64,000 nucleotides of DNA from Escherichia coli. Lineage in GTDB: Bacteria; Pseudomonadota; Gammaproteobacteria; Enterobacterales; Enterobacteriaceae. The translations under genes were made by a program, and so were the position numbers. The DNA is taken from NCBI RefSeq assembly GCF_003790525.1, contig NZ_CP033635.1, one strand, 5' to 3'. Below are positions 10,157-64,000 of this stretch, piece after piece. The notes below the pieces were generated by a model. That model was not told the origin of the DNA and did no database searches. It worked only from the letters and a program-made list of their open reading frames with translations. Numbering within the stretch: the stretch's first letter is position 1; every line of letters starts with the position of its first letter.

Positions 10157-10981
10157 ATGATCATCGAAAAAGTCATGAACAATAATTGTGTACAGGCATC
10201 GATGAATGGACAGGAGGTTATCATTTCTGGGCCTGGCGTCGGTTACAACAAAAAATATGGAATGTCGGTCCCTGAGCATCCGGCTAACCGGATTTTTTAT
10301 GTCAGAAATGAACAAAAAAATAAACTCTACAAATTGATTGAACATGTGGATATTGAGTATGTTTTTGTTGCCGAAAAAATAGTGCAATATGCGGAGAACA
10401 ATCTCGAAAAAAATCTCAATCCATCGCTACTATTGATTCTTGCTGATCACATTTCGAATGCAATATCCCGAGTCGCTTCAGGCATACAAATTAATAATGT
10501 TTTCCTTGATGAAATCAAAGCGTTGTACAAAGCAGAGTATGCGATAAGTCGCGATGCATTAACTATCATTAATGAGCAATTCAGCGTTCAACTTCCTGAT
10601 GATGAGATTGGTTTTATAGCATTGCATATTTTAAATAATTATGAAAATTCAGTTGATTATGAATCAGTACGGATTATTGAGTTGTCGCAAATAATCACGG
10701 GGCTTATTGAAGTTGTTTATAACAGAAAGGTGGACAGAAGTTCATTTAATTATTCCAGGTTCATGATACACCTTAAATATTTTTCAAGTCGCGTATTATG
10801 TAATGAAAAGATAAAACAAAAAGATATTGGTGACATCTATGAGCAGTTTCTTGAGAAAGACATCCTGTTACAGCGCGCAATTCATGAAATTGAACGGTAT
10901 CTGTATGCCACTTTTAAATATGAATTAATTTTAGAAGAAAAACTATATCTCTCAATTCGTACCAAAGTATTAATGGACTAA
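10157..10981 (+). CDS. BglG/LicT-family PRD-domain transcription antiterminator
   Basis: 275 aa from ATG 10157 (MIIEKVMNNNCV..., GGAG 7 nt upstream); N-terminal CAT RNA-binding motif KVxNNN and PRD-like segments; the ORF-track start 10100 lies inside the terminator hairpin. Confidence 0.8.
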   Translation: MIIEKVMNNNCVQASMNGQEVIISGPGVGYNKKYGMSVPEHPANRIFYVRNEQKNKLYKLIEHVDIEYVFVAEKIVQYAENNLEKNLNPSLLLILADHISNAISRVASGIQINNVFLDEIKALYKAEYAISRDALTIINEQFSVQLPDDEIGFIALHILNNYENSVDYESVRIIELSQIITGLIEVVYNRKVDRSSFNYSRFMIHLKYFSSRVLCNEKIKQKDIGDIYEQFLEKDILLQRAIHEIERYLYATFKYELILEEKLYLSIRTKVLMD

Positions 10982-11012
10982 TTATATATAACATTTATAT
11001 GAGATAACCCAC

Positions 11013-12593
11013 ATGAAACAAAAGAAAGCCTGGAGTTTTTTTCAGAGCCTGGGAAAGGCATTCATGTATCCCATTGCTCTGCTAAGTGTATGTGGCATGA
11101 TGCTAGGGCTGGGAAGTGGTTTAGCCAGTGATGATATGGCAAAGTTAATTCCATTTCTGGCTATTCCAATAATTAAAACCATACTTGATTTCATTGTTAG
11201 TCTTGGTTTGTTTGCCTTTGTTAATTTACCTGTATTGTTTGCGATAGCGATTCCCTTAGGATTATTAAAAGATAAAGAGGATAAAGCCTATGGTGCTTTT
11301 TCTGGCTTAATTGGTTTTATGGCGATGCATCTGGGAACGAACTTTTATCTTAAACAGCACGACTTATTGGTCGCTGCTGACCAAATGTCGACACATGGGC
11401 AAACCATCATTCTGGGGATCCAGTCCTACAATACCAGCGTGTTAGGGGGAATTGTTGCTGGGTTATTAGTCGCCAGCATGTATAAAAAGATCGTTAATTT
11501 ACGCATTCCTGAATCATTAGGTTTTTATAGCGGCCCACGTCTGGTGCCTATCATTACACTGATTGTGATGAGTGGATTTGGTCTGATCATCCCTTTTATC
11601 TGGCCGCCGTTTTTCAATCTTTTCATGCTCATTGGCCACTGGATTTCAACTTCCGGTCCTGTTGGCTATTTTTTCTATGCAGTCGCCGAACGCGTGACGA
11701 TACCTTTTGGTTTAAATCACCTGGTGACGTCAGTTTTCCGCTTTACCCCCATCGGCGGATCGGCAGTGATCGGCGGCGAAGAGTATTATGGCACCCTGAA
11801 CATGTTTATGGCGTACGTCAAAGAGAATGCGGTCATTCCGCTGGATTTGGCGGGGAAAATGGAACAGGGCAAACTGATGATTCAGTATGGTCTGGCTGGT
11901 GCCGCGCTGGCGATGTATCGCACTGCTCATGCTCAAAACAGAAAAGCTATCAAAGCATTGCTTATTTCCGGGGTGCTTACAGTCATTATTGGCGGCGTCA
12001 GCGAACCGATTGAGTTTCTGTTCTTATTTGTCAGTCCACTGCTGTTTGTCTTCCATGCATTTATGAATGGATTCGCCAACATGGTCTTGCCATATATGGG
12101 CGTGAAGATGGGATTTACTGGCGATCTGATTCAATTTATTAGCTTTGGCGTATTGCGTGGCACAAGAACAGGTTGGCCAATAGCGGTGTGTGTCGAAGTG
12201 GCCTATTTCTTTATTTATTACTTTGTGTTCCGTTGGACTATTCTCAAATTTAACCTGATGACGGTAGGCCGTGAAGAGTCCAGTCCTGTCACGCTGAACG
12301 CTCATGAGGATACGGCTATAGCGGATATCCCAACTCCTGATAAATCAGAGCTGCAAGCGGCGGAGCAGATGGTTAAGGCACTTGGTGGTAAAGAGAATAT
12401 TAAGTCACTGGATAATTGCGTAACTCGTTTACGTTTAACAATCGCAGATATGGGATTGCTTGACGAGGCTGCAATAAAAAGAGCCGGCGGAATTGCGGTT
12501 GTTAAACTTGATCAAAATACCCTACAAGTCATTATCGGTACTAAAGTCATCGCCTTGCGTCGGGATATGGATAACTACATGGGGATATGCTGA
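11013..12593 (+). CDS. PTS glucose/glucoside-family EIICB permease (no EIIA domain)
   Basis: 526 aa polytopic membrane protein with C-terminal EIIB motif NCVTRLRL; similar in architecture to MalX/PtsG-type EIICB. Confidence 0.85.
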   Translation: MKQKKAWSFFQSLGKAFMYPIALLSVCGMMLGLGSGLASDDMAKLIPFLAIPIIKTILDFIVSLGLFAFVNLPVLFAIAIPLGLLKDKEDKAYGAFSGLIGFMAMHLGTNFYLKQHDLLVAADQMSTHGQTIILGIQSYNTSVLGGIVAGLLVASMYKKIVNLRIPESLGFYSGPRLVPIITLIVMSGFGLIIPFIWPPFFNLFMLIGHWISTSGPVGYFFYAVAERVTIPFGLNHLVTSVFRFTPIGGSAVIGGEEYYGTLNMFMAYVKENAVIPLDLAGKMEQGKLMIQYGLAGAALAMYRTAHAQNRKAIKALLISGVLTVIIGGVSEPIEFLFLFVSPLLFVFHAFMNGFANMVLPYMGVKMGFTGDLIQFISFGVLRGTRTGWPIAVCVEVAYFFIYYFVFRWTILKFNLMTVGREESSPVTLNAHEDTAIADIPTPDKSELQAAEQMVKALGGKENIKSLDNCVTRLRLTIADMGLLDEAAIKRAGGIAVVKLDQNTLQVIIGTKVIALRRDMDNYMGIC

Positions 12594-13768
12594 TGGATGT
12601 TTTTAATACTCCTATTTCCCGCAAAGGAACATATTGTACCCAATGGGACTTTTGCGAGGACAGATTTGGTGTAAAAGATGTATTACCATTCTCTATTTCA
12701 GATATGGATCTTCCGATACCAGACGCTATCACCAGAGCATTAAAAAAACGTCTGGAACACCCGATTTTAGGGTACAGCCGTTGGCAGCATGATGACTATC
12801 TGAATGCGATAGTCAATTGGTATCATCAACAATATAAAACTGAAATCAAACCAGAATGGATCACCTATAGCCCAAGCGTGATGTACTCCATTGCTAAAGC
12901 AATAGAGTTATTGACATCGCATGGTGATAATATTCTCGTTTTTACACCTGTCTATAATGCATTTTTTGATATAATTAAACATAGCGAGAGAAATATTCTG
13001 ACAGCCTCTTTGATTATAAAAAATGAGGGGGGCTACGCTATCAATTGGCAAGATTTTGATCTTAAGATTCAAAGCGCAAAGATGGTGTTATTATGTAATC
13101 CTCATAACCCGACAGGAACAGTCTGGTCGGAAGAAGAACTGCATAAAATCGCTGCAAGCTGTACAAGGCATAATGTCTGGTTATGTTCAGATGAAATCCA
13201 TAGTGATTTTGTTTTTAATCGTAGCTTTACATCCGCGCTTAAAATAAAAAAAGAAAAAGTAGTAGTATTTAACTCGATATCGAAAACATTTAATGTTCCT
13301 GCACTAACAGGATCGTATATGATTTCAACTGACGATAATTTTAATCATAAGTTCAGAACGATATCGAGGTATCGCGATTTTGTAAACTCCCCATCAGTAC
13401 TGAATATAATTGCAACTATTATTGCCTATAACGAATGTGAGGGATGGTTAAAGTCATTAAAGGCACATATTGCCTCTAACATTCAATTCACCCAGCAGTA
13501 TCTGAACGAAAACACTCCAGAATTGATCGTAAGGCCAGCTGATGGTTGCTATTTTTCGTGGATAGATTGCTCTGCTATTGGTTATCCCTTTGATGAATTC
13601 TACAGTCGATTAATTCATGAAGGCAAAGTGGGCATTATGGCGGGGAATGTCTATGGAACGGAGGGGGAGGGCTACCTTCGTCTGAACCTGGCCTGCGGTC
13701 GAGAAAAATTATATATGGGGCTTACGCGTCTTGCGAGTGTAATTAAAAATATTAATCAAGGAAAATAA
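12587..13768 (+). CDS. MalY/PatB-family PLP-dependent aminotransferase / C-S beta-lyase
   Basis: 393 aa; N-terminus (TYCTQWDF..LPFSISDMDLP) parallels E. coli MalY (GTWCTQWDY..LPFTISDMDF); overlaps the EIICB stop by 7 nt. Confidence 0.8.
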   Translation: MLMDVFNTPISRKGTYCTQWDFCEDRFGVKDVLPFSISDMDLPIPDAITRALKKRLEHPILGYSRWQHDDYLNAIVNWYHQQYKTEIKPEWITYSPSVMYSIAKAIELLTSHGDNILVFTPVYNAFFDIIKHSERNILTASLIIKNEGGYAINWQDFDLKIQSAKMVLLCNPHNPTGTVWSEEELHKIAASCTRHNVWLCSDEIHSDFVFNRSFTSALKIKKEKVVVFNSISKTFNVPALTGSYMISTDDNFNHKFRTISRYRDFVNSPSVLNIIATIIAYNECEGWLKSLKAHIASNIQFTQQYLNENTPELIVRPADGCYFSWIDCSAIGYPFDEFYSRLIHEGKVGIMAGNVYGTEGEGYLRLNLACGREKLYMGLTRLASVIKNINQGK

Positions 13769-13770
13769 AA

Positions 13771-14367
13771 ATGAACAGCACGGATCTTATCCATCTCATT
13801 AAACATTTTATGCGTAACGAACATAAAGCAGTTGAAGAAGTTATTGATTCCCCCCTTTCGGAGGTCGCAAATTTAATTAAAGTATTACAGTCTTGTCAGG
13901 GGAAAGTTGTTTTTATTGGTGTCGGTAAGTCCGGTATTATTGCCCGAAAACTCGCCGCAACATTTGCCAGCACTGGAACTCCCTCGTTTTTTGTTCACGG
14001 TACGGAAGCGGTACACGGCGACCTTGGAATGGTGGCGAAAGACGATGTTGTTATTCTTATTTCAAACAGTGGTGAGACGGCGGAAATCCTGGCGACACTG
14101 CCTAGTCTGAAAAAAATGGGTAATTATTTGATCTCTTTTACACGCAGTCATCACTCATCGCTTGCGATAAGTTGTGATTTATCCGTTGAAATTCCCGTAA
14201 AAAGTGAGGCGGATAATTTAGGTTTAGCGCCGTCATGCTCATCAACAGTCGTTCTGGTTGTTGGTGATGCGGTGGCGCTTGCGCTCTCCGAATTGAAAAA
14301 GTTTACTCGTGCTGATTTCGGCTTATATCATCCAGGAGGTGCGCTCGGTATTAAAGCAAACTCATAA
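13771..14367 (+). CDS. SIS-domain sugar-phosphate isomerase (single SIS domain, KdsD/GutQ-like)
   Basis: 198 aa with GVGKSGIIARKLAATFASTGTPSFFVH, the SIS phosphosugar-binding motif. Confidence 0.75.
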   Translation: MNSTDLIHLIKHFMRNEHKAVEEVIDSPLSEVANLIKVLQSCQGKVVFIGVGKSGIIARKLAATFASTGTPSFFVHGTEAVHGDLGMVAKDDVVILISNSGETAEILATLPSLKKMGNYLISFTRSHHSSLAISCDLSVEIPVKSEADNLGLAPSCSSTVVLVVGDAVALALSELKKFTRADFGLYHPGGALGIKANS

Positions 14368-14429
14368 TTTCAAAATATAAATACAGTAACCGGTCACGCC
14401 ATCTTTTGGGGTGGCGTTCTTTGAAGTGA

Positions 14430-15386
14430 GTGTCAGCTATGAAAAATGTTCTGGTCACCGTCCCCAGCTTTTCAGCACGCTGTGTTTCCGCCAGCAAGTT
14501 GCTAAGAGAGAATAATTTTAATCTTATTATTAAGAATAATGTGGAGCATCTGCTTAAATCAGAATCCACTGCATTACGAGAATCTATTTGCGCGGTCATC
14601 GCCGGAAAAGATTGTTATCAGGCGGACACGCTATCATTGCTGTCTGGTGTGAAAATAATATCGAGATTCGGGACGGGGATAGACAATATTGATCTTCGTG
14701 CGGCACAGCAATCCGGTATTGTTGTCAATAATGCGGTTGGGATTAATTCAAATGCGGTTGCGGAATTTATCATTGGACTTATCTTCGCGAGCATGAGAAA
14801 TATCCCCGGTAGCTATCATGCGATGCAAAATGGTTATTGGGGCGAGTCGCATGGCTGCGAGTTACAAGGTAAACGTATTGGCCTGCTTGGCTACGGCAAT
14901 ATTGGCAAAACACTGGCGAAAAGGTTATCTGGTTTTGATGTTGAGCTTTTAGCTTTTGACAAACAACCCGATTTCCAGGCCGCAGGCAAAGATGGAGTTC
15001 AGTTCGTATCAATTGAAGATATCTTTATGCAGTCTCATGTCATCATCGTTCTTTTGCCATTTTCTCCGGAGCTGGAGAACTTCATTAGTCATAAATATTT
15101 GTCGATGATGCGCAATGGTGCTCTGATCATCAACGCCGCAAGGGGAAAGTTGCTGGATGAGGGTGCTTTACTTCAGGTAATTGAAGAACGAAATGTTTTT
15201 GCAGCACTGGATGTGTTTAGCTCTGAACCGCTAGCGCAATTTAGCCCATTGCTACATGCCAAGAATATCATTACAACGCCGCATATTGCGGCCGCCACCG
15301 TTGAGTCATACCAGCAAACCGGGATATACGTTGCCCAGTCGATAATTGATTACTTCGCAGGAAGGGAGATAAAAAACGTGCTGTGA
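14430..15386 (+). CDS. D-isomer-specific 2-hydroxyacid dehydrogenase family protein (NAD-binding)
   Basis: 318 aa; Rossmann GxGxxG (LLGYGNIGK) and catalytic-domain motifs typical of the SerA/PdxB/GhrA family. Confidence 0.75.
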   Translation: MSAMKNVLVTVPSFSARCVSASKLLRENNFNLIIKNNVEHLLKSESTALRESICAVIAGKDCYQADTLSLLSGVKIISRFGTGIDNIDLRAAQQSGIVVNNAVGINSNAVAEFIIGLIFASMRNIPGSYHAMQNGYWGESHGCELQGKRIGLLGYGNIGKTLAKRLSGFDVELLAFDKQPDFQAAGKDGVQFVSIEDIFMQSHVIIVLLPFSPELENFISHKYLSMMRNGALIINAARGKLLDEGALLQVIEERNVFAALDVFSSEPLAQFSPLLHAKNIITTPHIAAATVESYQQTGIYVAQSIIDYFAGREIKNVL

Positions 15387-15464: not shown

Positions 15465-15541
<77 letters not shown>

Positions 15542-15575
15542 TCACCGTACTGCTTTTACTTCATCAAATTTTGAT

Positions 15576-15652
<77 letters not shown>

Positions 15653-15685
15653 TCACCGTACTGCTTTACTTCATCAAATTTTAAT

Positions 15686-15762
<77 letters not shown>

Positions 15763-20085: not shown

Positions 20086-20292
20086 AAAAAAAAAGCACCG
20101 CAATTAGGCGGTGCTACATTAATCACTATGGACAGACAGGGTAAATGTACAGGAAGTGAAAAAAGGTAGCTTTGCTACCATGGTCTGAATCGCAGACCAA
20201 TTGCAAACACAACAACACAACATCACAACCGTAAGCCAAAAGTTCACCAGAACACGCATTCCGATAAAACTTTTCGTTCCGGCTCAGGAAGT
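20086..20292 (-). ncRNA. gcvB: GcvB small regulatory RNA
   Basis: Minus-strand sequence starts ACTTCCTGAGCCGGAACG and ends in the hairpin GCACCGCCTAATTGCGGTGC + U-tract; contains the GU-rich region GTTGTGATGTTGTGTTGTTGTGTTTG; divergent from gcvA. Confidence 0.9.
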
Positions 20293-37755: not shown

Positions 37756-38301
37756 GTGGACGATTTGACCGCACAAGCCCTGAAAGATTTTACTGCACGC
37801 TACTGCGATGCGTGGCATGAAGAGCATAAAAGCTGGCCGTTGAGTGAGGAACTGTACGGTGTTCCTTCACCGTGCATTATTTCAACTACCGAAGATGCCG
37901 TATACTGGCAACCCCAGCCGTTTACCGGGGAACAAAATGTAAACGCGGTTGAACGTGCTTTTGATATTGTGATACAACCCACAATTCATACCTTTTATAC
38001 GACTCAGTTTGCCGGGGATATGCACGCGCAGTTTGGCGATATCAAACTGACATTGCTGCAAACCTGGAGTGAAGACGACTTCCGTCGGGTGCAGGAAAAT
38101 CTGATTGGTCATCTGGTGACTCAGAAAAGGCTAAAACTGCCGCCCACGCTATTTATCGCGACGCTGGAAGAAGAGTTAGAGGTGATCTCGGTGTGTAATC
38201 TCTCCGGTGAAGTGTGCAAAGAGACGCTGGGAACACGTAAACGGACGCATTTAGCCTCAAATCTTGCGGAATTCCTTAATCAACTTAAGCCTCTTCTGTA
38301 A
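37756..38301 (+). CDS. syd: SecY-interacting protein Syd
   Basis: 181 aa. Confidence 0.85.
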
Positions 38302-38320
38302 TCCAAATACCCCATCTGGT

Positions 38321-38338
38321 TGTGAGAGATCTCTTACA
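38321..38338. promoter_or_regulatory. UvrY/SirA-type 18-bp palindrome upstream of csrB (TGTGAGAGATCTCTTACA)
   Basis: Perfect palindrome about 180 bp upstream of the csrB 5' end; matches the known BarA-UvrY target upstream of csrB as I recall it. Confidence 0.7.
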
Positions 38339-38520
38339 GACTCTGTAGGAGATCGCCAGGAAATAAGCGAATACTTAAAAAGATAAGAATCGTTATTTTC
38401 ATTTAAAATCAATATATTGCTTGTCAATTCTTAACTTTCATATGAAATTTTCCTTAAGGCATTGTCTGTAAGCGCCTTGTAAGACTTCGCGAAAAAGACG
38501 ATTCTATCTTCGTCGACAGG

Positions 38521-38877
38521 GAGTCAGACAACGAAGTGAACATCAGGATGATGACACTTCTGAAGGACACACCAGGATGGTGTTTCAGGGAAAGGCTTCT
38601 GGATGAAGCGAAGAGGATGACGCAGGACGCGTTAAAGGACACCTCCAGGATGGAGAATGAGAACCGGTCAGGATGATTCGGTGGGTCAGGAAGGCCAGGA
38701 ACACTTCAGGATGAAGTATCACATCGGGGTGGTGTGAGCAGGAAGCAATAGTTCAGGATGAACGATTGGTCGCAAGGCCAGAGGAAAAGTTGTCAAGGAT
38801 GAGCAGGGAGCAACAAAAGTAGCTGGAATGCTGCGAAACGAACCGGGAGCACTGTGAATACAGTGCTCCCTTTTTTT
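38521..38877 (+). ncRNA. csrB: CsrB sRNA (CsrA-sequestering RNA)
   Basis: ~357 nt starting GAGUCAGACAACGAAGUGAACAUCAGGAUGAUGACACUUCUG with >15 GGA/CAGGAUG motifs, ending in the hairpin GGGAGCACUGUGAAUACAGUGCUCCC + U7; between syd and yqcC as in K-12. Confidence 0.9.
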
Positions 38878-38922
38878 ATTCCTGCTATCCTTCGCGGCAG
38901 TTTTTCTTATTGAGGTTGCTTT

Positions 38923-39252
38923 ATGACCACTCATGACCGCGTTCGTTTCCAGTTGCAGGCGCTTGAAGCGTTACTGCGTGAACATCAGCACTGGCGAAAC
39001 GATGAACCCCAGCCGCATCAATTTAATAGTACCCAACCGTTCTTTATGGACACCATGGAACCACTGGAGTGGTTGCAGTGGGTGCTGATCCCGCGAATGC
39101 ACGATTTGTTAGAAAACAACCAGCCGTTACCGGGCGCTTTTGCCGTTGCTCCCTATTATGAAATGGCGCTGGCGACGGACCACCCGCAACGCGCGCTTAT
39201 TCTGGCTGAGCTGGAAAAACTGGATGCTCTTTTTGCGGATGATGCGAGCTAA
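38923..39252 (+). CDS. yqcC: DUF446 protein
   Basis: 109 aa; synteny, stop overlaps the truC start. Confidence 0.8.
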   Translation: MTTHDRVRFQLQALEALLREHQHWRNDEPQPHQFNSTQPFFMDTMEPLEWLQWVLIPRMHDLLENNQPLPGAFAVAPYYEMALATDHPQRALILAELEKLDALFADDAS

Positions 39253-45221: not shown

Positions 45222-47978
45222 TTACCCGAGAATTTTGCTGGCTTCGCGCGCTACATTATCCATCTCGTCTAACAGTTCCAGCAGCTCCGGCTCCAAATCT
45301 TCTTCTTTAGTACCGCTACGTAGCTGTTGTTCGATCAGTTGGCAGAGATTTTTCATACGCGGCACACCGCTATAGCCGCAACTGCCATGCAGTTTATGAA
45401 TCAAATCAACCAGGCCTTCCGGGTTTTCTCCAACCAGCTGTTCCTCAACTTTGTTGCGAACTTCAGGCAGGAAATCGAGTAACATTTGCAGCATATCGCG
45501 CGCTAAATCGGTTTTTCCTGCTGCCTGGCGTAGTGCCAGTTGCCAGTCGAGGGTCGCATTCGGGTTCACCACAATTTCGTTGACTTCGGGCGTCACGACG
45601 CGAGAGGAAATACCGCTGCCAGGCTTATAGCGCAACAACAAATTATGCAATCGCTCTTCTTCAATCGGTTTCGCCAGATAATCGCTCATCCCTGCGCCAA
45701 GCAGCTTCTCTTTTTGCCCGGCCATTGCATGCGCCGTTACCGCGATAACCGGCGTTTGTTGCTGATGGGGGAGCTGGTGGATGAGTTCGCAGGCCCGAAT
45801 GCCGTCCATGTCCGGCATTTGAATATCCATTAAGATCAAATCGAACGGCATCTGTTTCGCCCGTTCAACCGCCTGATGCCCGCTATCGCAAAGTTCCACA
45901 TGTTGCACCATATCTTCCAGCAATGCGCCGATAAGTTTCAGGTTAGCGGGGTTGTCATCAACCGCCATGACTGTCATTGCCAGCTTACTTTCATCGGTTA
46001 CAGGCAAAAGCGTGTTTTGTTTGTGATGACAAAATTCCGTCAGGGCAGGTAACAGGCGCGTAGGTGTTAATGGTTTCAGCAGACACGCGCCGATACCATC
46101 TTGCTTAAGTTTTTCAGCATTGACTTGTGCATGGCAAGGAAGTGCCAGCATCAGAAAATCGGTCATCGATACTGCTTTCGCTAATCGCTCATGTTGCATT
46201 GTTAGCGGCTCGCGGAAGGTCACCGCGATGCCTAACAACATCATGTCGTAATGCGCGGGAGGCAGCGCGGAGAACGTTGGGCTATAAACCACTTCCAGCG
46301 GCGTTTCACTTAAAATATCCAGCGTGCATTGCGCTGCTGCGGAGTTTGGTTCGACATAGGCCAGGCGCTTACCGGCGAGGCACTGGGTGGATGGCCCTTC
46401 GATAATAATGTTCGGGTTCAGATCGAGATTAATGTGGAACCAGAAAGTTGAACCACGATTCGGCTGGCTATGGAACGAAATATCACCGCCCATTTCATTA
46501 ACCAGTTTTTGTGTAATCACCAGCCCCAGCCCGGTGCCACCATGACGGCGGGAAATACTGGCATCAGCCTGTCTGAAGGCCTGGAATAAGCGCGATTGGT
46601 CGCGTTCAGGAATACCAATGCCGGTATCCCGAATCTGCACTTCAATTTGCACTTTGGTATTACTCAGCGCACGTTTTTCTACCAGAATATCAATGTTGCC
46701 ATTCTCGGTGAATTTAATTGCATTCCCCACCAGGTTAGTGATGATTTGCTGTAATCGTAGTGGGTCGCCGATAACGTTATCAGGCACGTCGCTTTTAATA
46801 TTGAGCGTCAGTTCCAGCCCTTTATCGTGAGAAGAATGTGCCAGCAGGGTAACGACTTCATCCAGCGTGCTGCGTAGTGGGAATGGAATACTTTCCAGAA
46901 TCAGCTTACCTGCTTCCAGTTTCGAGAAGTCGAGAACATCATTAATAATTGCCAGCAAATTATTTGCCGAACGTTCAATCGTATTCAGGTGATCGCGCTG
47001 CGTTGGTGTTAATTCTGTTTTCAGCGTCAGGCGGGTAAAGCCAATAACACCATTCAGTGGTGTACGCAGCTCGTGTGACATATTTGCCAGAAACTCGGAT
47101 TTAATACGCGCCGCTTCCTGGGCGCGCTTTTTCGCCAGATCCAACTCAACGTTCTGAATTTCCATCTGCTCCAGCGTCTCACGCAGATCGGACGTCGCCT
47201 GGTCGATATTGTGTTGCATCTCTTCGTGATAAGCCGCCAGCGACATTGCCATCGAGTTGATACCGTTTTTCAGCATATCCAGCTCGCCGAGCATAAATCC
47301 TTCCACCCGGCTGTCGAGTTGCCCGCGACGGATGCGGTCGACGGTATTCACCATGTTGCGAATCGGGCCGGTAACATCGCGCATTAAGCGCCAGCCAAAA
47401 ATAAGCGCAATACCGATACAAAACAGCATCATCACGCTGGAAATAAAGATCTCTTTATATTGCTGCAAGCGAACCGATTTAAGATCCAGCTCCAGCGCAA
47501 TATATCCCAGCATATTTTGACTATTTTTGGCATCGCTACTGGGCGATTCGTCGGGGGAGTAACTTTCAGAAATAATCGGCGTGCGGAGGATCATTATATC
47601 GCCGTCACGAGTGACAGTGAGCTGGCGAGGAAACGGCACGTTGCTGCCGAGCTGCATTGATGAGGGATCAAGATGAAAATTGGAGGTGACAAAGAGTCGG
47701 TTATTTTCATCATAAACCGAAATCGCGCGAACAATATCAGAATGGCGACGATGCAGTACGCTTATTAACTGACCGATAGATTCGCGATTTTGCAGACTCA
47801 TGCCATATTCAGTAGAAACTGCAAGCGGCTCAATAATGCTGGCACCGGCATCTTCCAGTTGACGCTGCAAGTCGTTATAGCGATGCACGACGAAAAAGAT
47901 ACTCAGCAATAAACCAATAAGGACGGTCGGTGCCAGGATCAGAATCATCATGCGTGCGCGCAGGCTGTAGTTGGTCAT
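45222..47978 (-). CDS. barA: Hybrid sensor histidine kinase BarA (HAMP-HisKA-HATPase-REC-HPt)
   Basis: 918 aa; H-box SHELRTPLN, receiver and HPt domains. Confidence 0.95.
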
Positions 47979-56433: not shown

Positions 56434-57859
56434 TAATGCCAGTCAGTTAAGCAACTGACTGGCTCTTTTTCGGGGCTGTGGGGTATTTCCAGGGCCTCTC
56501 CTTTACCACTCTCGGGAAGGCCCTTTCCCTTCTTGTCGGTAATTTCACAAGTTGTCCCATACTTGCAAGATCGCGCATCAGCTCCGGTATACGTCCCGGT
56601 GAAGCGCCCTGCAATGTCATCAGCATTCTCATCACCATTCCACATGATTCTGAGAAACTCAGTTGATTCGGCCAGTAACCTTTCAGATATTCCGCCATTT
56701 TAATCATCTGATATCTCACCAGATTATAAGCCAGTAAGACACCCCACAGCTCTTGCTCCACAAGCTCCGGTTTTTTACTTCTCAGCGTCAGCCTGCTCAG
56801 TTGCATCGTCTGTTTTATCTCCCTGTATCCCAGTTCGATTTCCCAGCGATGACTGTACAGATCCGCCATTTCTCCTCCGGGGAAGCGCATGGCGTCCGTC
56901 ATCGACGTCAGCAGATGGCAGACTTTTCCTTTGCGCGTCACGGTCAGCAGGCGGGCTGTCACTTCATTTCCCAGTCCCGGCCACTTTTTTCGTGCCTGCG
57001 GGCTGGTTTTCAGCTTCACCAGATGATCGCCTTTACCCAGTTTTCTGATCTCTTCATATTGCGCTCCCTTTCTGAGAGGTATCATCCAGTGGCGGTGTTC
57101 TCCCGCCAGGCTCCAGGCATTTAACAGTCCCAGTGAGTAATAACCTTTATCCATTAACGTCAGAGTGTTATCGCCGGTTTGTTCTATAAGTTGCTCAGCA
57201 AGCTCATTTTCGCTGTTCTTCATCGTGCCGAAGGCTGCAGCCGTCAGCAGATGGCTGGTCAGTTCCATCTGGCAGACCATTTTGACCTGCGGGTAGAGCG
57301 CCGGGTTCCCGGCATGTGTCTGGCGGGGGAAGGCTGCATCGTTCTCTGGTGTATCCGGTGTGCGCCAGAACACACCATCGATGGCCAGCAGGGTCAGGCC
57401 GCACCAGTGCGGATGCGGCGTGGCGTTATGCCAGAGCTGCGCTGTTTTCGTGAACACGCGGCGGACAGCCTCACTTCCCAGGCGCTGGCGGGCCTGAATA
57501 ACGGCACTGGGGGCAACGAAGGGGCGATTGCCCGGCAGCATGATGTCCAGGCGATTCACAATCTGGTGAAGAGGTTCTTTACGCTCAAGCGCCATGCCAA
57601 CAATACACCAGACCATCATTTCGAGGGGAAGACGGCGCTTGCGTAGCGTTACAGTACCTGATTCGGCAAGGCAACGAGAGATGAGTTCGGGGTCGAGGTA
57701 ATCCCCCAGAGAAGTCAGTGGGTTACGCAGAGAATCGTAACGGGATACCAGATCAAGAGCCTGTCCAATGTGCATAAAAAAATCCGGAAACAAGTGAGCG
57801 TTTCCGGATTCTTACACAGCCACTGGATCGGTCAACTGATCCTTAACTGATCGGCATTA
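56434..57859 (-). mobile_element. IS4 insertion sequence (1426 bp) with imperfect 18-bp terminal inverted repeats
   Basis: Ends taatgccagtcagttaag ... cttaactgatcggcatta (16/18 complementary); encodes an IS4-family DDE transposase; flanked by a 14-bp direct repeat. Confidence 0.9.
56447..57775 (-). CDS. insG: IS4 transposase
   Basis: 442 aa from [31 protein letters not shown], which I recognise as the IS4 transposase N-terminus. Confidence 0.9.
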
Positions 57860-57891: not shown

Positions 57892-58764
57892 TTACCAGCG
57901 GCCAGACGCGCCGCCACCGCCAGAAGAACCGCCACCTCCGTTAAATCCGCCGCCAGTTGAGCCGCCACCAGAACCGCCGCTGTCTGAATGATAACTTCTA
58001 CCTGATGCTTTTTTCTGTGGGACACATAACCAGGTAAAGACCATAATGATGGTGAAAGCAAAAAAGAAGGAAAATACAGCAATGGAAAAAGTTTGATCGG
58101 AGAACAGGAATAAATCTATAAGATAGACTGTTGAAATACAAACACTGCTTTTAAATGCCCGACAAAAATTATTGCCTTGATGAAAAAACCAGAAAGGGAA
58201 GAACATCACTGCAAATACCCAAAAAATAGCAAAGTAGTAATGATCACTGGAAGACGCTGATTCACTTTCTGAAGGATTAGACGAATATTGGTGTTGTGAA
58301 GTGAGTTGGTTATTCAAAGCGATTATAGCTAATTCTAATCCCTTAGCTAATTTTTGTTTTTTAAAGGCGGGTATCATGATGCTACGGATGATATTGCCAG
58401 CCAGAGCATCGGTTACCTTTTCTTCCAGCCCATAACCTACCTGGATGCGGACAGTACGATCCGACCAGGCAACAATGATCAGTATCCCATCATTACGTTT
58501 GGCATCTCCTAAACGCCAATTGTCAAAAACTCTTGTAGCATATTGTTCAATAGAATCGTCTCCGGTGGATGGCACTATTAATACAGCGACCTGTGCCCGT
58601 GTTTTTTGTGTAATATCCTGCAGCTGTTGTGTTAGTGATTGTTGTTCAGACGTGCTTAAGGTACCAGTAATATCGGTCACCTGTTGGCGCAGCTCCGGCA
58701 CAGCAATTTGCTGGGCAAGCACAGGAAGGCACCATAAAGTGAGTAGAAAAAGGATTATACGCAT
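57892..58764 (-). CDS. ygcG: TPM-domain membrane protein, YgcG-like (signal peptide, TPM domain, TM segments, Gly/Ser-rich C-terminal tail ending GRW)
   Basis: 290 aa from ATG 58764 ([17 protein letters not shown]); length as recalled for K-12 YgcG; the ORF-track start 4 codons upstream is a TTG and is rejected. Confidence 0.75.
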
Positions 58765-58769
58765 AACGA

Positions 58770-59918
58770 TCACCAACGGTCGGATGAACCGCCGCCTCCT
58801 GAAGAACCGCCGCCACCGCGGAAAGAATTTTTCGACGAAGAGCGAGAATGAGCATTACGATTCCCCGTTTTCCTGTTGCTTTTTTCTCCTGACCCCAGCT
58901 TAAGATTGCCAGTAAATTTGGCCACAATGATCAGCAGAACGATGCCAGCAATGGTTATTGGGCCGATAAAATGATCAATTAACCCAATAATTGTTGAGAT
59001 GAATGCTATATCTTTATTACTGGCGAATACCAGGCACCATCCCACAACAATTATCAGCAGCACGACAAACAATGAGTTTCGTTCGGATTGAGAAACCTGC
59101 TGAGTCGTCTTTTGTTTTTTCACTTTAGCGTTTTTATTTTTTGGGGCCAGCATCATAGGAAATACGCGATACATATGAAAAATTACCGCGAGACGCTGCC
59201 AGCAGGTTGCTGCGAAAAATAAACTAAAACAAACGAGCGATACCCGCCGAATGATGACATCATCCTGAAAGAAGAAAAACCAGACCATAGGAGTAATCAT
59301 CGATATCATCCATATGCCAGGCCCGGGACGGCTGGTAAATCGCCAGAGGACAACGATGGCAACGATCATCAGTAATGTCCAGGCAAGACATGGCAGCGAG
59401 CGTTGCGGATTAGCAAACAGATGATTGGCTAAAGCATCCAAAGGGCTAAGATTCGCTTTTATATAGGTAAACTGTGCGATGCCTTCAATTCCCTGCGTTA
59501 ACCCGGAGAAGAGATTATTTTTTTTGAATTCCGGTTGCATATGGTAATGAACAATTTGCGCAGCTTGTTCCGGTGGCAGCATCTCTTTCAGTCCATGCCC
59601 AATCTTCATTGACGCCAGCCCTTCCGGCCAAACGACGAGAATTAAGATACCTTCGCCGTACCGCTTCTCTCCAACGGGTTTCCAGTGATATAACCCGTAG
59701 CTCTGAGAGGCTGCAAGTTTAATGTTTTTGCCCCCTGTGGTCGGCGTAACCAACACGGCCACCTGGAAGTGGTTTTGCTGCTCGAGAGTCTGTAATTGTT
59801 GATTTAAAGCAGTTTGTTCTTCTGTCGTTAATGTCCCGGTTAAGTCAGTTACTGAAGGCAATTGTTCAGCGAATGCCTGGAAACCATATAGCATCAGAAG
59901 TAAGAGAAAAATACGCAT
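58770..59918 (-). CDS. TPM-domain membrane protein, paralogue 2 (extended multi-TM region, Gly-rich tail ending DRW)
   Basis: 382 aa; signal peptide [20 protein letters not shown]-like core ([20 protein letters not shown]), tail [15 protein letters not shown]; AAGGA RBS; 5 nt upstream of ygcG-like gene. Confidence 0.75.
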
Positions 59919-59932
59919 TTCAATTCCTTTTG

Positions 59933-60826
59933 TTACCAGCGCCCGGAGGCGCCACCGCCGCCAGATGAACCGCCGCCGCCGCGGAAATTGTCATTGTCGA
60001 ATGAAGAGGATGACGATGACGAATAGTGGGAGGAAGAATTACTTCTTGTATGGCGTGATGGCTGGTTGGTATTACGCATCGAATCCCGAACCTTTTTGCC
60101 GAAGGGAGTAAAAGCGATGGCGACAGCCAGGAACGGTGTGGCGAAGCAGAGTAATGTTGCGAGCACTCCCCAGCTTCCGCTGAAACCTGCTATAGGTAAA
60201 ACAAAGGCCAGTACAATAGCTGCGAAGCAAATCAGTCCCAGCGTTTTGATATATCCTCTGGCAGAAATAAACGTCAGTATTATCGCCCAGACTAACAAAG
60301 CCCACCAACCGCTAAAGGGCAAAGGGTGATCGGTCGGTGTTATCGTTGCTGAATTATTCCCCGTCAGGCGACTTTCAATATCGTTGATCCCCTTTTGTAA
60401 ACCACCAGCCAGGTCGCCTTTTTTAAATGCCGGAATAATACTGTTGCGAATAATTTTCCCGGACTGTACATCCGTAATAATACCTTCCAGTCCGTAACCG
60501 ATTTCAATACGCACGGTATGATCCTGCCAGGCGACTAACAGTAGAACGCCATCATCGCGGTCTTTATCACCCGGTTTCCAGCTATCGAATACCCGCGTTG
60601 CGTACTGCTCGATGGTTTCATCGCCTGTTGTATCAACCACTAACACGACCAACTGTGCGTGGTTTTTTTGCGTCAGGGCTTTAATCTGGTTGGTCAGGGT
60701 GTTTACTTCGCTGTTTGTTAATGTGCCGGTTAAGTCATTCACATACTTGGGGGATTCAGGTACTGGAATTTGTGTGGCAAACACAGATGAACAGAAGAAA
60801 GCCATAAGGAAGATAAAATTTCGCAT
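59933..60826 (-). CDS. TPM-domain membrane protein, paralogue 1 (Ser-rich + Gly-rich tail ending GRW)
   Basis: 297 aa from ATG 60826 (MRNFIFLMAFFCSSVFA); TPM-like core (LTGTL..QLVVLVV..IEIGYGLEGI); tail [15 protein letters not shown]; 13 nt after the lemA stop. Confidence 0.75.
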   Translation of the reverse strand: MRNFIFLMAFFCSSVFATQIPVPESPKYVNDLTGTLTNSEVNTLTNQIKALTQKNHAQLVVLVVDTTGDETIEQYATRVFDSWKPGDKDRDDGVLLLVAWQDHTVRIEIGYGLEGIITDVQSGKIIRNSIIPAFKKGDLAGGLQKGINDIESRLTGNNSATITPTDHPLPFSGWWALLVWAIILTFISARGYIKTLGLICFAAIVLAFVLPIAGFSGSWGVLATLLCFATPFLAVAIAFTPFGKKVRDSMRNTNQPSRHTRSNSSSHYSSSSSSSFDNDNFRGGGGSSGGGGASGRW

Positions 60827-60839
60827 AGAACTTCCCCGC

Positions 60840-61442
60840 TTAATGCGCATTAGCATTCTGGCTAAAATCTATTGTTGGGGCTTTACTTACTGCGGTGACA
60901 TCATCCGGCAAATAATTTTTCTTTGGTGTGTAATCCATGACCTTTGCGGTTAATACAGCGGGGAATTTGCGGATAGTGACATTATATTGTTCAATGGCTT
61001 TAATATATCTTCCTCGCGCAACGGCAATTCTATTTTCACTTCCTTCGAGCTGTACCATTAAGTTTTGATAGAGTTCCTGAGCTTTTAACTCAGGGTAACG
61101 TTCACTAATTATCGTTAACTGACCGAGAGTGCGAGACACCTGCGCCTGGGCTTGTTGCCAGGCTTGTAATTTTTGCGCATCTCCCGGAGCTTGCTGAAGA
61201 TCGCTACTGGCGCGATTAGCCTGGCTACGTGCCAATGTTACGGCTTCCAGTACCTCTTGTTCATGGCTAGAATAACCTTTAATACTGGCGACAAGATTAG
61301 GAATAAGATCGGCGCGACGTTGATATTGATTCAATACCTCAGACCAGGAGGCGTTAACCTGCTCATCATAGGTTTGAATATCGTTATATCCACAGCCTGA
61401 TAAATTGACAATAAATATAATTACGATGAATATCCTGAGCAT
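60840..61442 (-). CDS. LemA-family protein (probable lipoprotein, lipobox LSGC)
   Basis: 200 aa; N-terminal hydrophobic segment with Cys at position 17 in an LSGC lipobox; coiled-coil-rich LemA-like body; first gene of the 4-gene minus-strand cluster. Confidence 0.7.
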   Translation of the reverse strand: MLRIFIVIIFIVNLSGCGYNDIQTYDEQVNASWSEVLNQYQRRADLIPNLVASIKGYSSHEQEVLEAVTLARSQANRASSDLQQAPGDAQKLQAWQQAQAQVSRTLGQLTIISERYPELKAQELYQNLMVQLEGSENRIAVARGRYIKAIEQYNVTIRKFPAVLTAKVMDYTPKKNYLPDDVTAVSKAPTIDFSQNANAH

Positions 61443-62371: not shown

Positions 62372-63379
62372 TTATCGGTAGCGTTTTTGTAGACTGGCAG
62401 GAAGATAACGCTGTAATGGGGATGGCGTTTCACCTTCAATCAGTTGCGAAATAAGTTCAAAGCAGTGAAAAGCAAGTTGGCGATTATCCTGTTGTATTGT
62501 GTCGATTCTTACCGAAAGTGAATCATACAAGTAATGATCATCAAAACTCGCCAGGTGGATTTTACTGTCGAGTAAATTATATTGGCTCATATAGCGCAGA
62601 ACGCCTTCCAGTAATCCACAAGCGGCAGTGAATAAGGCTTTAGGGGGACGTCCTAAACGAGCGCATAGCGCGGCAAACATTTCATAGCCTGAGCTCGGAT
62701 GATAATTACCGTGAATAATCCATTCAGGTTGTAGCGTTACTCCGGCTTGCTGCAAGCCTTGTGTAAATCCTTCCAGTCGATCGCGAGTCGGTGACAAACG
62801 GGGTTGTCCGCCCAGAAAATAGAATTCATCCGGGTGACTCCGTGCAATATCTGCCACCAGAGCGGCGGTGGGAGAAACAGAGTCAGTAATGACCAATGGC
62901 AATGTGCTGCCGTTCATGTGGCGATCGAACAACACAACAGGTAATTGCTCGCTAAGTTTTTGATAGTCATTATCATGCAGCATACTGGATGCGACGATTA
63001 ACCCATCAACCTGGCGGGCAATCATATTGTTCACCACCATTGTTTCCTGTGAAGGATTTTCATCAGTACAGGATATGAGGAGTTGGACTCCCGCTTCCCG
63101 ACACAATGTTTCCAGTTCATGGGAAAATACTGCAAATCCGTAGTTAGTGATTTCAGGAACGACGAGACCAATGGTGTGACTGCGGTTGTCCCGTAATGAG
63201 CGGGCATGAATGCTGGGCTGATAATGCTGCTGTTGGGCAATACTCAGCACACGCTCACGCGTTTCCTGCGCAACACGTAACTCTTTGCCACGACCATTGA
63301 GAACCAGACTGGCGGTTGCTTTCGACACTCCCGCCAGTTCAGCAATGTCTTTAATAGTAACGCGTTTGGTTTTTCTCAC
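62372..63379 (-). CDS. LacI-family transcriptional repressor, sucrose-operon type (CscR/ScrR-like)
   Basis: 335 aa; N-terminal [26 protein letters not shown] resembles Cra/ScrR-type LacI regulators; immediately downstream of a GH32 hydrolase gene in the same direction. Confidence 0.7.
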
Positions 63380-63404
63380 GACGAGGATCCGTAATTCAAA
63401 ACCC

Positions 63405-64000
63405 TCATTCTACCATGCAGGCGCGTAGCGACCAGTAGTGTAACGTGACGTCAGACTCGCCCTGTAATATCAGCGAAGCTGGATGATGGGGAAAATAACG
63501 ATTGCTCATTACGCCTTCGCCATTATTGATGAATATCTCTATGCTGGAACTGTCACAGAGAATCTTCAGTGACGTTACGCTTCCTCGCCAGTAACGAGTT
63601 AGTTTCTCTTGCCCTGCAAGGCTTTTCCTCTGTAGTTGAATACCATCGTCATTAAGATGCAGTGCCAGTGCGTTGCCAAAATTCAGATGTAGCTCGCCTG
63701 ATGGAATGATGTCCATTTCCAGACGTTCAATTGCGACAGGCGGCGCATGATCCGCTTTTCCTTGCCAGAAGTGTTCAGCTTCACGCAGTTGCGCGAGTTC
63801 CCTGATTGGCATCTGAAATAATTTTCCCTTCTGGAATGAGAGTTCGCGAAAACAGGTCATTTGATGCTGCCAATGATGCTTTCTGGTTGGTTGCAACATC
63901 TCTTCGCCATCAGGAACCCCCATCCAGCCGACCAGTAATCGTCGCCCGTCCGGGGCTTCCATCGTCTGTGGTGCATAGAATTCAAATCCCGCATCCAGCT
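63405..64000 (-). CDS. Glycoside hydrolase family 32 (sucrose-6-phosphate hydrolase/invertase-like), C-terminal part; gene continues past the window edge
   Basis: Reading frame stays open to the window edge (..[27 protein letters not shown]..); C-terminal region resembles the beta-sandwich domain of sucrose hydrolases. Confidence 0.6.

Follow-up and report, generated by a model that had tools for sequence, protein, structure and literature searches.

The stretch of Escherichia coli DNA analysed here (64,000 bases, hereafter the window) contains, between syd and yqcC, a region where an ORF list shows short reading frames. The question that it raises is whether this region is the csrB gene preceded by its UvrY-dependent control region, and how much of the BarA-UvrY-CsrB circuit can be vouched for from the window. 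A first-pass annotation had assigned the interval 38321-38877 to csrB with an intact upstream UvrY palindrome, and had proposed a covariance-model scan, a count of GGA motifs and a comparison with K-12 csrB as checks. All three were carried out. Our reading, to which we assign a probability of about 97%, is that positions 38512-38880 of the plus strand are the E. coli csrB gene, encoding a non-coding RNA of 369 nt that would be controlled by phosphorylated UvrY (UvrY-P), IHF and BarA as in K-12. In K-12, CsrB, its UvrY site, BarA and the part played by IHF have already been well characterised, and the locus described here is a normal allele. The features of the locus are collected in Table 1.

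Table 1. Positions of the features discussed in the text, numbered from the first base of the window
Feature	Position	Strand	Basis or remark
syd (upstream flanking gene, synteny marker)	37756..38301	+	ORF list; SMS-3-5, XDL and K-12 annotation
UvrY-P site, TGTGAGAGATCTCTTACA, 18-bp nearly perfect inverted repeat	38321..38338	.	exact match; equals footprinted K-12 sequence and position
extra UvrY half-site-like element TGTAGGAGATCG	38344..38355	+	5 bp past the inverted repeat
IHF consensus site AATCAATATATTG (consensus WATCAANNNNTTR)	38407..38419	+	-105..-93
putative core promoter block	38476..38507	+	-35-like TTGTAA 38477-38482, 17-nt spacer, -10 GATTCT(AT) 38500-38507
csrB sRNA	38512..38880	+	RF00018 full-length match, collinear with K-12 b4408
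csrB intrinsic terminator	38845..38877	+	11-bp perfect stem, 4-nt loop, T7 run; terminator scan and Rfam structure line
46-aa ORF	38536-38676	+	ORF list
62-aa ORF	38454-38642	-	ORF list
45-aa ORF	38585-38722	-	ORF list
71-aa ORF	38719-38934	-	ORF list
yqcC (downstream flanking gene, synteny marker)	38923..39252	+	ORF list; SMS-3-5, XDL and K-12 annotation
barA, tripartite sensor kinase	45222..47978	-	named barA in the annotation of the twin genomes

The csrB gene and its K-12 counterpart

The covariance-model scan (Rfam release 15) gave a match to CsrB (RF00018) at positions 38521-38880 of the plus strand, with a score of 383 bits, as compared to a gathering score of 71, and an E value of 2e-111. 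The match is untruncated and covers the model over its full length (positions 1-356 of 356). When the curated coordinates of K-12 csrB (b4408) were transferred by collinear alignment, the RNA was placed at 38512-38880, corresponding to 369 nt, between syd and yqcC as in K-12, SMS-3-5 and XDL. The interval originally proposed for the locus is right at its start, which is that of the inverted repeat, but not at its end, since 38877 is the final T of the terminator and the curated 3' end is at 38880.

RNAs of the CsrB family carry GGA motifs in loops and linkers, which bind and sequester CsrA dimers and so relieve the control of CsrA over its mRNA targets. Twenty-two GGA motifs were counted in the 369 nt of csrB, which is the densest GGA stretch of the window; the window mean is 4.7 ± 2.5 per 369 nt, and the maximum found elsewhere on the same strand is 13. 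In the minimum-energy fold, at least two of the three bases are unpaired in 19 of the 22 motifs, and 11 motifs lie entirely within hairpin loops. The AGGA motifs are also placed in loops by the Rfam structure line, and the fold is more stable than that of shuffled sequences (z-score -4.2). Exposed for the most part in short hairpin loops or single-stranded linkers, the 22 motifs would sequester CsrA dimers, an activity that is predicted from the 98.9% identity to K-12 CsrB and from the retention of all 22 GGA. Transcription of csrB would stop at the terminal stem-loop and T-run.

K-12 csrB (b4408, NC_000913.3 2924156-2924524) has the same length, flanks and terminator as the gene in the window. 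The two sequences are identical at 365 of 369 nt, both contain 22 GGA, and their RF00018 scores are 380.4 bits (K-12) and 383.0 bits (window). With respect to K-12, C is replaced by A at 38563, immediately 5' of a GGA, and G by A at 38700, with one GGA shifted by 1 nt. The other two differences fall in paired regions: at 38770 (C to T) a G-C pair of a small hairpin becomes G.U, and at 38851 (G to A) a G.U of the K-12 terminator becomes a Watson-Crick pair. At three of these four variable positions, 38851 A among them, the window carries the Rfam consensus base. Upstream of the gene, four substitutions are found within 13 bp (38413, 38416, 38420 and 38425), the rest of the 210-bp region being identical. 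Two of them affect the N4 stretch of the IHF consensus, which is degenerate, the other two being located just 3' of it, and the consensus is kept. None of the differences from K-12 in the csrB region involves a loss of motifs or structure. The description of the locus as fully conserved thus depends on the reference: it holds with respect to its own clade (100% identity to SMS-3-5, XDL and others), but not with respect to K-12, from which the 621-bp intergenic region differs by 8 substitutions.

A second RNA, csrC, sequesters CsrA like csrB. Its gene is elsewhere in the genome, outside the window, and the best Rfam match at the locus under study is CsrB. As for csrB, expression of csrC is UvrY-dependent through a far-upstream inverted repeat; this repeat (TGTGAGACATTGCCGATA) is less symmetric than that of csrB, and csrC does not need IHF (Zere et al., 2015; PMC4682653).

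Over its whole length, the window aligns collinearly with the E. coli XDL chromosome (NZ_CP043033.1, 1189121-1253120), only 3 of the 64,000 bases being mismatched, and its central 25 kb are 100% identical to XDL and to at least 11 other complete genomes. A 701-bp csrB query showed 100% identity with SMS-3-5 and related isolates, and over these 701 bp the window allele is identical in all 15 records listed, which are of human, animal and environmental origin. Among complete E. coli genomes, csrB is present in 5425 of 5426 (98.4%-100% identity in the full-length matches sampled) and reaches at least 80% coverage in 5423. A 61-mer around the inverted repeat is unchanged in 4363 of the complete genomes, and a further 1062 differ from it by one mismatch. 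Nearly all E. coli genomes thus have an intact locus, and for this reason to call csrB "intact" in one strain carries limited information. An exception was observed in E. coli MARGA_3 (NZ_CM170101.1, 1815-2992), where an IS3-family element lies within csrB and nt 92-369 of the gene are found downstream of the insertion.

Some other features of the window were recorded. A 5.3-kb accessory block (10157-15386, plus strand) extends from amiC to three tandem tRNA-Met genes (15465-15762, minus strand) and carries genes for a PRD-domain regulator, a PTS EIIC, a MalY/PatB-family protein, a KpsF/GutQ-type isomerase and a phosphoglycerate dehydrogenase; of the 5426 complete E. coli genomes, no more than 1689 contain this block. 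On the basis of annotation transferred from XDL, an IS4-family transposase gene (56447-57793, minus strand) is located just after eno, and a TPM-domain/LemA gene cluster, in which one gene is annotated as an incomplete pseudogene, occupies 57892-61442. The end of the window (62372-64000, minus strand) contains the gene of a LacI-family regulator and the beginning of that of a sucrose-6-phosphate hydrolase, which apparently belong to a sucrose-utilisation (csc-type) cluster.

The control region and the BarA-UvrY-CsrB circuit

When positions are counted from the csrB 5' end (38512), the inverted repeat extends from -191 to -174 and is centred at -183/-182. The upstream UvrY palindrome noticed in the first pass is, in fact, the published site at its published position. 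It had been called an 18-bp perfect palindrome; its length and location are correct, but the symmetry is incomplete, because pair 4/15 is G/T and 8 of the 9 pairs are complementary, so that the reverse complement of TGTGAGAGATCTCTTACA differs from it at two positions. The same sequence in K-12 was termed a "nearly perfect palindrome" by Zere et al. (2015; PMC4682653), who found that UvrY-P protects it in DNase I footprinting and that it gives a barA-dependent ChIP-exo crosslink in vivo. These authors also described a partially conserved extra sequence, TGTAGGAGA, 5 bp downstream of the K-12 repeat; in the window it is found at 38344-38352, at the same distance from the repeat. The GacA box (the upstream activating sequence of UvrY/SirA/GacA) of K-12 and that of the window therefore show no difference, having the same 18-mer, the same position and the same adjacent TGTAGGAGA. 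Phosphorylated UvrY would bind the repeat and possibly the adjacent half-site too.

Between the repeat and the gene, AATCAATATATTG is the only match to the IHF consensus upstream of csrB, and one of eight in the 64-kb window when both strands are considered. In K-12, a putative IHF site was placed between two UvrY crosslink regions, and IHF contributes roughly 10-fold to CsrB expression (Zere et al., 2015; PMC4682653). We infer that this site is the exact 13-mer at 38407-38419, which is likewise located between these two regions. IHF, acting around -100, would bend the DNA and allow the distant UvrY-P to reach RNA polymerase.

The putative promoter hexamers, assigned on the basis of their spacing to the curated 5' end and of the cross-species footprint, are TTGTAA at -35 to -30 and GATTCT at -12 to -7. 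A simple scan of positions 38250-38950 for sigma-70 promoters returned no site. This result is explained by the fact that only 7 of the 12 consensus positions match, and it fits an activator-dependent promoter. Transcription of csrB would begin at this weak promoter, which would require an activator.

Two TGTAAG motifs, corresponding to the consensus UvrY half-site, are present near the promoter (38467-38472 and 38478-38483, 11 bp apart), with an overlap between the second and the conserved -35 block CTTGTAAGAC. In 11 of 16 Enterobacterales, the conservation of this block is not confined to the -35 hexamer. Among the matches listed in the cross-species scan described below, 31 of 99 loci have TGTAAG on the side of the repeat that faces the gene, as compared to 4 of 99 on the control side, these loci being phylogenetically related. 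It is conceivable, although we consider it rather unlikely, that the two motifs are low-affinity proximal UvrY half-sites, contacted when UvrY-P bound at -183 is brought to the promoter upon IHF bending; TGTAAG near the promoter may simply be the -35 variant of the CsrB family. A promoter-proximal UvrY ChIP-exo crosslink (-56 to +25) was observed in K-12, which footprinting failed to reproduce and which was left unexplained (Zere et al., 2015; PMC4682653). Proximal half-sites, if real, would explain this crosslink.

The sensor kinase gene barA is located on the opposite strand, and 6,341 bp separate the 3' end of csrB from the stop end of barA, in agreement with the distance of about 6 kb given at first. 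The encoded protein is identical to K-12 BarA at 918 of 918 residues and contains the Pfam domains sCache_4, HAMP, HisKA, HATPase_c, Response_reg and Hpt, all above cut-off. The gene order is also that of K-12: syd, csrB, yqcC, truC, yqcA, gudP, gudX, gudD, barA (opposite strand), rlmD and relA. BarA, encoded 6.3 kb away from csrB, would phosphorylate UvrY. The binding of UvrY-P, the dependence on IHF and the requirement for BarA come from experiments on K-12, whose repeat is identical, and by analogy the same probably applies to this strain.

A search of the 64-kb window with K-12 UvrY (tblastn) retrieved only the receiver domain of BarA (28.6% identity), and uvrY is absent from it. The first-pass annotation had proposed the locus as an internal control for an intact BarA-UvrY-CsrB circuit in this strain. 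This holds for csrB, its control region and barA, but not for the circuit as a whole: since uvrY, csrA, csrC, csrD and ihfA/B are outside the window, only those three components can be certified. A structurally intact csrB might thus belong to a circuit that does not function in this strain, owing to a defect located elsewhere (in uvrY, csrA or ihfA/B) or to altered IHF binding. Natural lesions do occur, as seen from the csrB insertion of MARGA_3 and from strain ATCC 43889, where uvrY is broken and only about half of the gene is retained, and the four substitutions upstream of csrB are clustered at the IHF site. However, the base rate of such lesions is very low: uvrY is found at a coverage of at least 80% in 5418 of 5426 E. 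coli genomes, leaving 8 without such a match, and csrB is retained at the same coverage in an even larger number. Moreover, the substitutions at the IHF site keep the consensus, and a decayed locus would hardly be expected to be shared unchanged by all 15 records listed. We therefore consider a non-functional circuit very improbable, and retain the reading of the locus as a normal csrB allele under predicted UvrY-P control.

The inverted repeat and its RNA neighbour beyond E. coli

The syd stop codon lies 20 bp upstream of the 18-mer, a proximity that could suggest a terminator or 3' element of syd, or simply a chance palindrome, rather than a UvrY site. With respect to the idealised consensus TGTAAGN6CTTACA, TGTGAGAGATCTCTTACA has one mismatch (G at position 4). 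When up to two mismatches are allowed, this consensus gives one match in the 64 kb, while about 1.7 are expected by chance; for this reason the consensus alone is weak evidence, and weight has to be placed on the exact 18-mer and on its linkage across species. TGTGAGAGATCTCTTACA is unique in the window at up to two mismatches, and in 100 dinucleotide-preserving shuffles of the window the full 18-mer never occurred, even at this tolerance.

The exact 18-mer was scanned in one genome per species, and at least 120 loci were found. Those among the matches listed belong to Enterobacterales, Vibrionaceae, Shewanella and a few other Gammaproteobacteria. In 99 of the 104 listed sites with complete flanks, a GGA-rich 450-nt stretch is present on one side of the 18-mer; among the matches listed, the median is 23 GGA per stretch, as compared to a background of about 6. 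The 18-mer is oriented as in E. coli in 71 of the matches listed and flipped in 28, and the occurrence of both orientations is what is expected for a symmetric site bound by a dimer. Rfam CsrB was called beside the 18-mer in 15 of 20 loci sampled across genera. The centre of the repeat is located 172-210 nt upstream of the CsrB model start in Enterobacterales (191.5 nt in the window, in Citrobacter and in Klebsiella) and 198-292 nt upstream in Vibrionaceae.

Conservation of the 18-mer itself across these species is by construction, because the loci were retrieved with its exact sequence. In a footprint of 16 species, other elements that had not been selected for are nevertheless conserved: the half-site TGTRRGAGATCG, the IHF core, CTTGTAAGAC at -35, GATTCTAT at -12 to -5 and, within csrB, the 5' GGA hairpin GTCGACAGGGAGTC. 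In several genera the half-site is an exact copy of the left half of the repeat, TGTGAGAGATC, and the CA..TT columns of the IHF core are conserved across Enterobacterales.

These data bear directly on the nature of the repeat. Among the matches listed in other genera, including Vibrio, Photobacterium and Shewanella, the 18-mer travels with CsrB-family genes and not with syd. In K-12, the identical sequence at the identical position is the one that gives the UvrY-P footprint and the barA-dependent crosslink in vivo (PMC4682653). A role as syd terminator is ruled out, considering that no T-run follows the 18-mer and that the terminator scan makes no call there. We give next to no credence to a repeat that would be anything other than the UvrY site of csrB.

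Five of the 104 sites among the matches listed, one each in loci L034, L035, L078, L080 and L089, had been scored as lacking a GGA-rich neighbour, and some individual loci deserve mention. In Shewanella gelidimarina (L033), GGA-rich RNAs with terminators are found on both sides of the 18-mer, and in a Hahellaceae MAG (L035) a short RsmY/Z-like RNA is found on the opposite strand from it; all of them score below every Rfam gathering threshold. They look like Csr/Rsm-type sRNAs that are poorly covered by current models. At a further locus (L034), a second copy of the 18-mer is located about 500 nt from a copy that has a GGA-rich RNA. Neither a GGA-rich region nor an Rfam match was found on either side of the 18-mer in a Kangiellaceae MAG (L078), in a member of the Pseudomonadales (L080) and at locus L089, where the 18-mers may have arisen by chance or may serve a GacA-family regulator at targets other than sRNAs. 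Two tandem CsrB-family matches are present downstream of a single 18-mer in Photobacterium piscicola (L073, 4902-6071), and in a Vibrio sp. (L046, 1504-2932) a Qrr quorum-sensing sRNA is encoded about 1 kb from the CsrB gene.

Short reading frames and the annotation gap

The first pass had stated that csrB is missing from ORF-based annotation and is covered by short spurious ORFs. This was borne out: five short ORFs of 26-71 aa tile the gene, with others in its flanks, and there is no PGAP feature. No RefSeq/PGAP feature was found between syd and yqcC in SMS-3-5 or XDL, nor under csrB in 30 RefSeq E. coli genomes sampled across the identity range, resequenced MG1655 included. As compared to the PGAP genomes checked, only the curated NC_000913.3 record carries the csrB ncRNA. 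In the RefSeq annotation of SMS-3-5, the locus tags pass from RS14805 (syd) to RS14795 (yqcC), and RS14800 is skipped exactly at csrB, which suggests that an earlier version had a feature at this place and that it was removed afterwards.

The interval might encode one or more small proteins (the 46-, 62-, 45- and 71-aa ORFs) instead of, or besides, the RNA. These ORFs do exist in the ORF list, and two of their products have been deposited as hypothetical proteins: the exact 46-aa product as "hypothetical protein ECP_2774 [E. coli 536]", present also in UniRef, and the 71-aa product in a 636-member cluster of hypothetical proteins. However, current RefSeq/PGAP annotation does not call them, no Pfam family was found for any csrB-internal ORF, and in alignments with other Enterobacterales all four lose their frame, start codon or openness. 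This decay appears as lengths that are not multiples of 3, lost start codons and 1-4 internal stops; it is already seen in Citrobacter for the three minus-strand ORFs, and from Klebsiella and Pluralibacter onwards for the 46-aa ORF. In the genomes where the internal ORFs decay, the RNA model still scores 164-378 bits. Frame decay and the lack of any Pfam family rule out the protein-coding reading, which we regard as having almost no chance of being correct.

A second sRNA gene of the window, GcvB (20087-20292, minus strand), was matched at full length by RF00022 with 199 bits, between ygdI and gcvA. As for csrB, nothing is annotated at this place by PGAP in XDL, the near-identical twin genome.

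The csrB locus can be used as a positive control for RNA-aware scans. It illustrates how a major global regulator escapes standard annotation, and how the spurious "hypothetical proteins" put in its place by older pipelines are still found in protein databases.
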